This document shows, piece by piece, positions 54,169-57,706 of a stretch of 64,000 nucleotides of DNA; position 1 is the stretch's first letter; the number at the start of each line of letters is the position of its first letter. Made by a program: the position numbers and the translations under genes. The stretch comes from Octopus vulgaris (lineage: Eukaryota). The stretch covers positions 49,104,001 through 49,168,000 of the forward strand of contig OX597830.1 in assembly GCA_951406725.2 (NCBI GenBank). Reading direction: 5' to 3'. The notes beneath the pieces are model-generated. The model had not been told where the DNA came from, did not search any database, and worked only from the letters and a program-made list of their open reading frames with translations.

Positions 54169-54470
54169 TCAAGGCGATCTTGTGCATCTGAAACCCGAGT
54201 GTCTTCTTAGTCTGATGTGGTTTTTTAAACCAGAAAATCTATGGAAAAGACACCCACATAGATTGCATATCTGATTTGGGTCACCAAAAGCTGCAGTTAA
54301 GTTCTGATCTTTGTGGATATTAAAATGTCTTTTGAGGCCTTTGTTAGATTTGCAAACCTTCTGGCATACATTGCATTGAAAGATGTACACGGCTATATAG
54401 GTAGAATAGTTCGTGGAGGTTCGTCTTTCATGGGTCTGAAAATGAGATTTGAGCCCAGCAAAAGAAAGGC
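54169..54470 (-). mobile_element. C2H2 zinc-finger fragment, probably the 3' end of an RTE/BovB-type LINE
   Basis: One partial finger (CLSFAGLKSHFQTH), one perfect C-x2-C-x12-H-x3-H finger (CNVC..HFNIH), one degenerate finger (CNLC..HIRLR); no TGEKP linkers. Confidence 0.55.
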
Positions 54471-54571: not shown

Positions 54572-55516
54572 TTGGGTCATCTCATAATGCGGTTTTTTAT
54601 ACTGTCTGGTGGACTTGCAAGCTTCCACAGGGCTTCTTTGCTTCTTGAAAAGGCTTCTTGCAAGGCTCCTCTTTTGTCCGTGAAGAAAAATACTCCTCTA
54701 GTACTGTTCTGACTTCGTCAACAGAATTCATATGTTTTCCATCCAAATGATTTTGAAGGCTGCGGAATAAATGATAATCAGATGGCGCAATATCCAACAA
54801 ATATGGTGGGAGGGGCATTGTTTTCCATTCACACTGCTCCAGCTTTCGGAATATCATCCTCGCTGTATGTGGCCGAGCATTATCCTGATGAAAGAACACG
54901 TTTCGTCTTGAAACGAAAGATGGTCGTTTTACTTCTAGTGTTGACTAAAGCCGCTAAGCTGCTCGCATTAGATTTCCTTTGTTATCGTTTGGTTTGGGTT
55001 CAAAAGTTCAAAGTGGACTAAACTTTTTATATCCCACCAAAGAGATAACAACGTCTTACGTGGGTGAAGACCTTCTTTAGCCTGGGGTTCCCGTGTGTCT
55101 CCTTTCTCTACCCACTGTCTTCGGTGCTTGACATTTTTATGGAGAACCCATTTCTCGTCACCAGTTACTATTCGGTCCAAAAAGGTTCATTCGTGAAACG
55201 TAACAGCAAAGAAAAGCGCACATTCGATTCCCCATATACTGCATTAATATTAATTGCACTATCCGTAGTGTACTTGCATTTATTCAACTCATAAATCAAA
55301 ATATGCCGAATATGCTCCTTTGTCACTTCCTTTACAGCCTTGAAAAAATAACTGTTAAAATCACACTGCATTCTTCAGATATTGCACTAAGAATTAGTAG
55401 AAGGTAAAGTTACTACCTGCTTTTAATAGCAAGTTGATGCAGGTAGTTTATCCCGACCTTCTCCGATTTTTAGTTCATGCTATTGAAAAAGCAGCATTGT
55501 TTATGGAATGACTCAA
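54572..55516 (-). mobile_element. Mariner (DD34D) transposon, internally deleted and frameshifted
   Basis: TIRs TTGGGTCATCTCATAA / TTGAGTCATTCCATAA; motifs IVTGDEKWV, HQDNARPH, DIAPSDYHLF with 34 residues between the last two Asp. Confidence 0.93.
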
Positions 55517-55859: not shown

Positions 55860-55928
55860 TTATTATATAACTGTTCAATATTTGGTAGACGGAGGCAAAT
55901 TTCTGCAGCATCATCAGCTAGACGTCCG

Positions 55929-56004
<76 letters not shown>

Positions 56005-56023: not shown

Positions 56024-56055
<32 letters not shown>

Positions 56056-56070
56056 GTTGGCATATGCCAA

Positions 56071-56146
<76 letters not shown>

Positions 56147-56149
<3 letters not shown>

Positions 56150-56880
56150 TAGTTTTATTTTTATTTTTATAGCGTGCTTTCACTTCACTACCGAGCGCAG
56201 CTCTGTGTGCCTTGGGTATGTGCTGTGATTTGTTGTGATGCTCTGATGGTTATTGTATGGAAAGTGTTCTGCGTAGGATGTGTGCAGTGCCTAGTAGTGC
56301 AATTTTCTGTATGTTATATGTGTTTGTAAGTCCTGGTGTTTTTGTTATGTATTTGTCTGAATATTTTTTTATCATGCCTAATGCACCTACTATGATAGGA
56401 ATTGTTTCTGTTTTCAGATTCCACATTCTAGTTACCAATTGTTTCTGTTTTCAGATTCCACATTCTAGTTACCAATTGTTTCTGTTTTCAGATTCCACAT
56501 TCTAGTTACCAATTGTTTCTGTTTTCAGATTCCTCATTCTAGTTACCAATTGTTTCTGTTTTCAGATTCCACATTCTAGTTACCAATTGTTTCTGTTTTC
56601 AGATTCCACATTCTAGTTACCAATTGTTTCTGTTTTCAGATTCCACATTCTAGTTACCAATTGTTTCTGTTTTCAGATTCCTCATTCTAGTTACCAATTG
56701 TTTCTGTTTTCAGATTCCACATTCTAGTTACCAATTGTTTCTGTTTTCAGATTCCACATTCTAGTTACCAATTGTTTCTGTTTTCAGATTCCACATTCTA
56801 GTTACCAATTGTTTCTGTTTTCAGATTCCACATTCTAGTTACCAATTGTTTCTGTTTTCAGATTCCACATTCTAGTTACC
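56147..56880 (-). mobile_element. 5'-truncated R4/Dong-clade LINE (REL endonuclease C-terminus + 3' UTR) with amplified 5' end
   Basis: VTRMWNLKTETIPIIVGALGMIKK..IQKIALLGTAHILRRTLSIQ*; (TAA)n on both sides, the known Dong target. Confidence 0.88.
56400..56880. repeat. 13 x 37-bp tandem repeat AATTGTTTCTGTTTTCAGATTCCACATTCTAGTTACC
   Basis: 481 bp = 13 x 37; units 4 and 8 share an A>T variant (TTCCTCATT); no spacers. Confidence 0.97.
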
Positions 56881-56883
56881 ATA

Positions 56884-56937
<54 letters not shown>

Positions 56938-56960
56938 TATTATTATTATTATTATTATTA

Positions 56961-57162
56961 TTTTTTTTTTGTGGTATGATTTCTTGTTTGTATTTGTCAG
57001 CTTCCTTAAATACTGAGAAAAGTTTTTTGTTTTGCTCGTGTTTTGCCGCTATCTGGATCAGTTTTCCTTCCTTCTGAAGTAGATGTTTTTGCAGTCCTAT
57101 GGTGGTTATTTTATAGTAGTTTTCCAGTTGTATAAGGCCTCTACCACCTTCTATACGTTGTA

Positions 57163-57164
<2 letters not shown>
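56961..57164 (-). mobile_element. Internal R4/Dong LINE fragment (post-RT region)
   Basis: IQRIEGGRGLIQLENYYKITTIGLQKHL..; GGRGL motif; ends in A10 then (TAA)n. Confidence 0.8.
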
Positions 57165-57240
<76 letters not shown>

Positions 57241-57266
57241 CATTATTATTATTATTATTATTATTA

Positions 57267-57701
57267 CTTTTTTCTTCTTTCAAATTTTCTTCCATTTCTT
57301 GCCGAGTGTCTTCCCGACTCCTAGGGCAAAGAAACTCATAGTGTATATTGGTAGGCCATTAAACCAAACTCAGTAGTTCGTTCATATTTTTTACTTAAAA
57401 AAATTTTTTTAAAGTTAAATTAAAATACATGAGCAGCAACAGTTCTCACATCGACAATGCTCTTCTCAATATGTGTGATGTACCAGTTAAGACAATCTTT
57501 TGCACTTCTTGCAGGGATGGTAAGCCAGGGATCATTCTCATATAATTTTCGGTTCCCTTCTTGATCATTCCTAGTGCTCCTACGATCACTGGTATTGTAA
57601 CCGCCTTGAGATGCCACATTTTCTCAATTTCAATGAGTAGGTCTTTATATTTTCTGAGCTTGTCAAACTCTTTCGCTGAGATATTATGATCACAGGGGAT
57701 G

Positions 57702-57706
<5 letters not shown>
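57267..57706 (-). mobile_element. 5'-truncated R4/Dong LINE, second subfamily (REL C-terminus + 3' UTR)
   Basis: SIPCDHNISAKEFDKLRKYKDLLIEIEKMWHLKAVTIPVIVGALG..VQKIVLTGTSHILRRALSM*; KxxKY REL motif; (TAA)n flanks. Confidence 0.9.

Follow-up and report, generated by a model that had tools for sequence, protein, structure and literature searches.

The window, a 64,000-nucleotide stretch of Octopus vulgaris contig OX597830.1, contains at 56147..56436 on the minus strand a copy, truncated at its 5' end, of a young RLE-type LINE that targets (TAA)n. This copy retains the last 62 codons of the ORF and a 3' UTR of ~103 nt, with its stop codon at 56250-56252 in the translation, and is 98.6% identical to another copy of the family, L016. 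The (TAA)n tract at its 3' end (56073..56146, minus strand) is either target or tail, and other copies end alike. At its 5' end lies an array of thirteen 37-nt units (56400..56880, minus strand), in which unit 1 (56400-56436) is part of the element body and the recopies occupy 56437-56880. A 4-nt joint of ambiguous origin (56881..56884, minus strand) connects the last unit to the 5'-side (TAA)n target tract (56885..56960, minus strand; 56885-56962 in TRF). Immediately beyond, at 56961..57165 on the minus strand, is an internal fragment of the same LINE family with an A10 end, corresponding to ~1055-860 nt upstream of the ORF end and matching L016 at 96.6%; it probably inserted independently of the array copy into their common TAA tract.

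TRF reports the array as 56400-56881, period 37, 13.0 copies, 99% matches, and a unit-by-unit listing resolves it into 13 exact 37-nt units arranged head to tail (56400-56880) apart from one variant, an A>T common to units 4 and 8 (positions 56534 and 56682), which gives a 148-bp period. The minus-strand unit, VTRMWNLKTETI, continues into the ORF end of the LINE and, when aligned to a longer copy, occupies the first 37 nt at the 5' end of the truncated copy, ~140-177 nt upstream of the ORF end. TRF, the unit listing and the alignment thus agree with a preliminary description of this DNA that had placed 13 x 37 nt at a 5' truncation point. Its wording that 37 nt were repeated 13 times is right about the number of units, but unit 1 belongs to the element body, which leaves 12 extra copies. 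The microhomology at the unit junction is 0. A 30-mer spanning this junction has 10 matches in the 2.8-Gb genome, every one within the array, indicating that the array was not copied from another locus. Beyond the last unit the listing gives ATAG and then (TTA)n. The identity of ATAG to positions 56395-56398, pointed out earlier, is real but carries little information, and the joint letters can be parsed just as well as one base together with 6 nt that copy the unit start and would have been primed by the TAA tract. All three minus-strand frames of the array contain stops, in line with the earlier statement that no repeat protein is encoded, and we infer that the product is a new noncoding minisatellite, a by-product without evident function.

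An exact 28-mer of the family's 3' end has 8,717 matches in the genome, and most copies are 96 to 100% identical to the reference copy. The near-full-length copy L101 (~3.9 kb) encodes an ORF that matches RVT_1 of Pfam (E value 7.9e-33) and aligns to solved R2 proteins over residues 40-794 (E value 5e-37). In its translation, CRIC...H...C, which we take to be a CCHC knuckle, and RPD...LID...K, presumably the restriction-like nuclease motif, both follow the RT, and the alignment to R2 spans this region. The N-terminal 408 aa of L101, a copy split into two frames, gave zero matches to zinc-finger families. TAA tracts adjoin 66 of the 85 visible 5' ends of unselected copies, as scored by a script, and the 3' ends of the family continue into (AAT)n. 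Judged from these sequences, the LINE that carries the array appears to be a young, R2-like, RLE-type, (TAA)n-targeting element and, by its RT, nuclease region and TAA target, a candidate member of R4/Dong. The target of Dong is likewise TAA microsatellites (PMC3812793, cited, like the other papers below, from the part of its text available to us), and in Octopus vulgaris Dong-R4 is reported to be highly active, with five recently active families, 1129 insertions and 4.7 Mb (PMC13282606); the available parts of these two papers contain no mention of 5'-terminal reiteration. The Dong element of Bombyx has an HDV-like ribozyme at its 5' end (PMC3774820), and an Rfam scan of one full-length 5' end of the octopus family gave just two weak, unrelated matches.

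Is the array peculiar to this insertion? A genome search for six 11-nt family motifs duplicated within 12-45 nt, and for one duplicated within 46-76 nt, returned 50 loci, of which 10 did not belong to the family and were dropped, leaving 40 family loci including the window array. The recopy sits at the 5' junction in 32 of these 40 and is internal in 8, compared with a background in which the 5' end lies <=45 nt from the motif in 29 of 462 copy-motif pairs (6.3%; Fisher P of about 3e-26). Collapsing four loci that have one truncation point (L078 and L080-L082) leaves 29 of 37 at the 5' junction (P of about 1e-23). The background comes from 100 unselected copies in the first 22 Mb of contig C1, each with the exact 28-mer, so that the sample is biased to young copies. 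Arrays are hence not randomly placed within copies, nor is the window locus the only one: dozens of other family loci carry recopies, with units that in truncated copies differ from locus to locus. Random placement and a single locus were conditions that the preliminary description had named as refuting its proposal, and neither holds. The internal events are duplications or one inverted complex, and no long direct array was found among them. The inverted complex, at L110, was considered as a top-strand fold-back at a 5' junction; it is really an inverted complex inside the element and was counted as internal. It is a fold-back inversion iterated twice, ~124 nt before the ORF end (G000:C11:52294200-52296300). 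Inverted segments joined in a twin-priming-like manner are also seen in the family copies L013 (~1533-1695) and L093 (~2977).

Among the 100 unselected copies, 81 have a visible truncated 5' end, and recopies are present at 3 to 4 of these (~4 to 5%). Clear recopies of at least 20 nt occur at three: a second copy at L101 (3 x 27 nt), L158 (2 x 34 nt) and L134, where 14 units of 21 nt are followed by 4 units of 41-43 nt. A further one of the 81, L032, has a 76-nt duplication that includes flank, and four show 8- to 10-nt echoes that may be due to chance. The same pattern is present at three loci of other TAA-flanked families (L015, L024 and L115). Some truncation points recur among unlinked copies (L078 and L080-L082, ~330 nt before the ORF end; L055 and L111-L113, ~202 nt before it), and they may be hot spots of RNA breakage or RT stops, or reflect shared short sources.

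Recopies are far more common at full-length 5' ends than at truncation points (51 of 81 versus 3 to 4 of 81), a point missed by the preliminary description. A 20-mer from the element's 5' terminus has 948 genome matches, and we took all 81 loci behind the first 100 listed of these matches, on contig C1, counting units and judging their order by eye. Of the 81 ends, 51 (~63%) have the first 12-30 nt in one or more extra copies, and one unit is ~80 nt long. At least three extra units are found at 24 ends, and the maximum is 25 extra (26 units). The counts are roughly geometric with p 0.71 per round: for one or more, three or more and nine or more extra units, the fit expects 57, 29 and 3.6 loci, and 51, 24 and 5 are observed. 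With dozens of loci on many contigs, units that vary internally and always the same biological position, it is extremely improbable that the arrays are an assembly artifact. At 56400-56880, no listed contig of five public runs, which cover the family and may derive from other individuals, bridges the junction, a result that neither shows nor excludes the array; there, only the exact copy number, which is assembly based, could be off.

At 32 distinct junctions in truncated copies, the unit length ranges from 10 to 45 nt with a median of 29. All of these junctions come from the loci that were parsed first. Microhomology is absent at 17 of the 32 and averages 0.88, versus 0.94 in shuffles, so the earlier claim that the join lacks evident microhomology holds both at the window array and, at chance level, across the family. 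Chance-level microhomology fits end-directed jumping and not microhomology-driven repair. Five internal duplications have 1-6 nt of microhomology. The 5' boundary of an array is usually fixed at or inside the 5' end of the body, with a unit extending well 5' of that end in only two of the 32 junction loci (L068 and L077), and the 3' boundary can vary. At L055 and L091, several units begin well inside the body's 5' end without microhomology. Units of unequal length with a common 5' end occur within the arrays of L134, L075 and L089, and pieces of target TAA lie between units at L090, L119, L122 and L206. In five long full-length arrays, one-base variants at junctions lie dispersed and lack a higher-order period (P of 0.15 to 0.96), as expected if every unit is a fresh round of synthesis. 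An apparent period-4 pattern in L201 was not significant (P of 0.48).

Unequal unit lengths, junction slop and TAA pieces between units exclude both a fixed RNA circle and an origin by slippage only. Rolling-circle copying of a small circular RNA would account for the exact, spacer-free units of constant length at 56400-56880, and an RNA mini-circle had been proposed for them. We consider it highly improbable, since unit length varies over a fixed 5' end at L134, L075, L089, L195 and L202, constant length and identical junctions are not seen at L134, L075, L089, L185 and L209, and junction slop and target-derived bits separate units elsewhere. Ordinary minisatellite growth, in which slippage or unequal exchange enlarges a chance duplication long after insertion, has more in its favor: the units at 56400-56880 are identical apart from one variant at a 148-bp period, variants are alternating or shared by blocks at L229, L240 and L211, and eight internal duplications exist. 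It is nonetheless an unlikely origin, leaving unexplained why recopies cluster at 5' ends and are present at 63% of young full-length ends, why junction slop is nonperiodic and why unit lengths are mixed, and the internal events are duplications or an inverted complex instead of long direct arrays. Such growth contributes to the arrays but does not start them.

A separate question is whether arrays at full-length ends are inherited, that is, included in the transcripts of source copies and handed down in the manner of promoter monomers. Locus-specific 5' tags common to all units of an array track the relatedness of the bodies (47% versus 5% identical), and unit end points recur between loci, both as inheritance would have it. 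It is inapplicable to truncated copies, where units are locus specific, and unit ends and numbers differ among copies of one subgroup. As a general explanation we regard it as very unlikely, although full-length arrays may be partially inherited from their source copies.

Very probably, then, the arrays originate at insertion; their concentration at 5' ends and the chance-level microhomology support the earlier proposal of reiterative copying during insertion. Which strand was growing is ambiguous from the sequence: it may have been the first, on an RNA template, or the second, on cDNA. We give an even chance to the reading that the RT runs off the RNA 5' end and reenters the same RNA 10-45 nt back, repeatedly. 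Target-primed reverse transcription would begin in the (TAA)n tract, and the RT would reach a hard RNA 5' end, either the true end or a break, as in the copy at 56400-56880. Instead of joining the upstream target strand, it would jump back onto the terminal piece of RNA, probably freed by host RNase H (a conjecture), displace the earlier cDNA and recopy the piece, with a probability of ~0.7 per round at full-length ends; the final unit would then be joined to the TAA tract. Full-length ends would stutter far more than truncated ones because the enzyme always meets a hard RNA end there, and the fixed array boundary fits a true template end, needing no homology. The 3' boundary changes in seven arrays of at least four units, and by eye the shortest units are on the flank side in all seven, as a shrinking RNA piece predicts; the shortening at L202 is not monotonic. 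The jumps of R2 proteins onto further RNA templates (PMC11371274), the R2-like ORF of this family and the rarity of units that extend well 5' of the body also favor this reading. Against first-strand growth, the distal unit is longer in four of six three-unit truncated arrays (L041, L044, L088 and L119). At L175, a fold-back lies beyond the last unit, and its simplest source would be the cDNA 3' end after the repeats, in favor of first-strand growth; cDNA fold-backs are also present at L030 and L141.

Alternatively, the second strand may have made false starts: either the element's RT or host polymerase theta would extend the upstream (TAA)n strand, with the 3' end of the cDNA as template, and the extension would break off after 10-45 nt, drop back to the cDNA end and begin anew, until a round goes all the way. 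We hold this to be possible, though not probable. It would account for the fixed 5' boundaries, set by the cDNA 3' end, for the variable 3' boundaries and for the TAA pieces in the four arrays named above, and the excess at full-length ends would follow from poor pairing of the purine-rich element start with TAA. The few untemplated bases between units look rich in A on the sense strand (~10 junctions, inspected by eye), as would befit growth of the top strand, and the iterated fold-back at an internal break in L110 shows that repair-type iteration occurs in this genome. On the other hand, the same internal stop would be needed up to 25 times without a template end (L209 and L185), and several units of L055 and L091 have their start, which lacks microhomology, well within the body. 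Polymerase theta makes short, locally templated and sometimes iterated insertions, normally guided by microhomology and limited to few rounds, whereas the arrays have microhomology not above chance and up to 25 rounds in register. The shared 5' tags were considered as evidence for a cDNA template and rejected as such, since they track body relatedness and could be inherited from RNA. For R2, second-strand DNA is made by the protein in vitro, inefficiently primed and with putative jumps, the primer being proposed to jump onto the cDNA (PMC13000458), and such a jump would be predicted to give fixed 5' boundaries likewise.

Later events on DNA are likely under the RNA-based reading as well. Aberrations present in several units but not in the body (L187, L211, L229 and L240) are hard to obtain from one RNA template and need DNA-templated copying, and those that alternate or are shared by blocks (L211, L229 and L240) bear out the caveat, raised for the window array, of later DNA-level expansion. 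Slippage on the new DNA array would duplicate blocks, and the variant shared by units 4 and 8 is best read as such later DNA-templated copying; repeated misreading of one damaged template base is less likely.

How do these arrays compare with known systems? Template jumping by R2 was reportedly described by Bibillo and Eickbush in 2004. Like R2, the array family would jump without homology at the template end, and snap-backs are common to both; R2 jumps lead onto a different RNA or link whole templates in tandem, whereas here the terminal 10-45 nt are recopied. R2 proteins jump onto further RNA templates, giving longer products, and the junction classes recorded for PRINT are anneal, join, snap-back and extra template; repeated recopying of a terminal 10-45 nt is not a class in the available text (PMC11371274). 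The 5' junctions of R2 show additional bases, duplicated target, snap-backs and jumps onto other RNAs (PMC2718515, PMC11371274). According to the legend of Fig. 5 in Eickbush, Burke and Eickbush (2013), a few R2 junctions have short reiterations, one being a triple 20-mer of 28S-derived sequence that forms the RNA 5' end; the reading given there is a single target duplication plus microhomology priming and added nucleotides, not cycles (PMC3774820). R2 thus resembles the array family in having extra sequence at full-length 5' junctions of an RLE-type LINE, but its reiterations are a minority of junctions (PMC3774820), in contrast to 51 of 81 full-length ends here, and the octopus units consist of element sequence, occur also at internal truncation points and reach 26 copies.

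Telomerase and DRT2 copy a stretch of linear RNA repeatedly between programmed boundaries (PMC12039810). The likeness is that of an RT recopying a short linear RNA into head-to-tail DNA, which in the octopus family is deduced from array anatomy. In telomerase and DRT2 the boundaries are programmed, an alignment motif is used and the product has a function, whereas in the array family boundaries differ with each insertion, truncated copies need no alignment motif and the arrays look like a by-product. The family may work like these systems but does not belong to them.

Apart from older subscription papers, in which an earlier mention is possible, the literature yielded no description of family-wide 5' reiteration, and the available parts of PMC11331408, bioRxiv 10.1101/2024.12.14.628481, PMC4370867, PMC13580325 and PMC7026601 contain nothing on it. 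Isolated R2 examples are already known, and the family-wide recopying appears to be new: cyclic recopying of the 5' terminus during insertion is apparently a frequent, undescribed habit of this LINE group. In its strongest form the proposal is that a LINE RT performs telomerase-like repeat addition in vivo, recycling the last 10-45 nt up to 25 times at ~70% per round, so that most full-length insertions would create a new minisatellite, several hundred of them in one genome; we advance it tentatively, with the chances slightly on the negative side.

How LINE 5' ends are joined and what makes the second strand are still open (PMC13000458), and the arrays record many successive attempts at 5' joining within single insertions, at a rate that can be assayed. 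Stuttering of the first strand would mean that an R2-like enzyme performs telomerase/DRT2-type repeat addition without programming; stuttering of the second would make the arrays a direct trace of aborted priming. With either strand, minisatellites are born complete at insertion (948 full-length 5' matches, with arrays at ~60% of sampled loci). Recopying of the 5' terminus is also an error class worth seeking in R2-based gene writing.

Short microsatellites adjoin some 5' junctions, namely, AAG runs at L097, L102, L151, L192, L197, L205 and L231 and a CATA run at L091. They repeat the element's own terminal 3-4 bases and may be the same stutter at its shortest scale.

Several minor features surround the array in the window. 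The fragment at 56961-57165 (minus strand) is without 3' UTR and may copy a prematurely polyadenylated transcript. In the same tract, 57266-57704 (minus strand) is the 3' end of a second TAA-targeting LINE family, for which one 5'-junction duplication is present elsewhere (L115). A perfect short palindrome lies between two TAA tracts at 56055-56075; one half corresponds to a stretch of the family ~430 nt upstream of the ORF end, and the whole resembles a 10-nt insertion with snap-back. At 55860-55930, ~70 nt between head-to-head (AAT)n and (TTA)n tracts have no second match within the window. Frames at 54169-54460 and 54597-54944, both on the minus strand, presumably encode a pair of C2H2-like finger motifs and a fragment of a mariner-like transposase.
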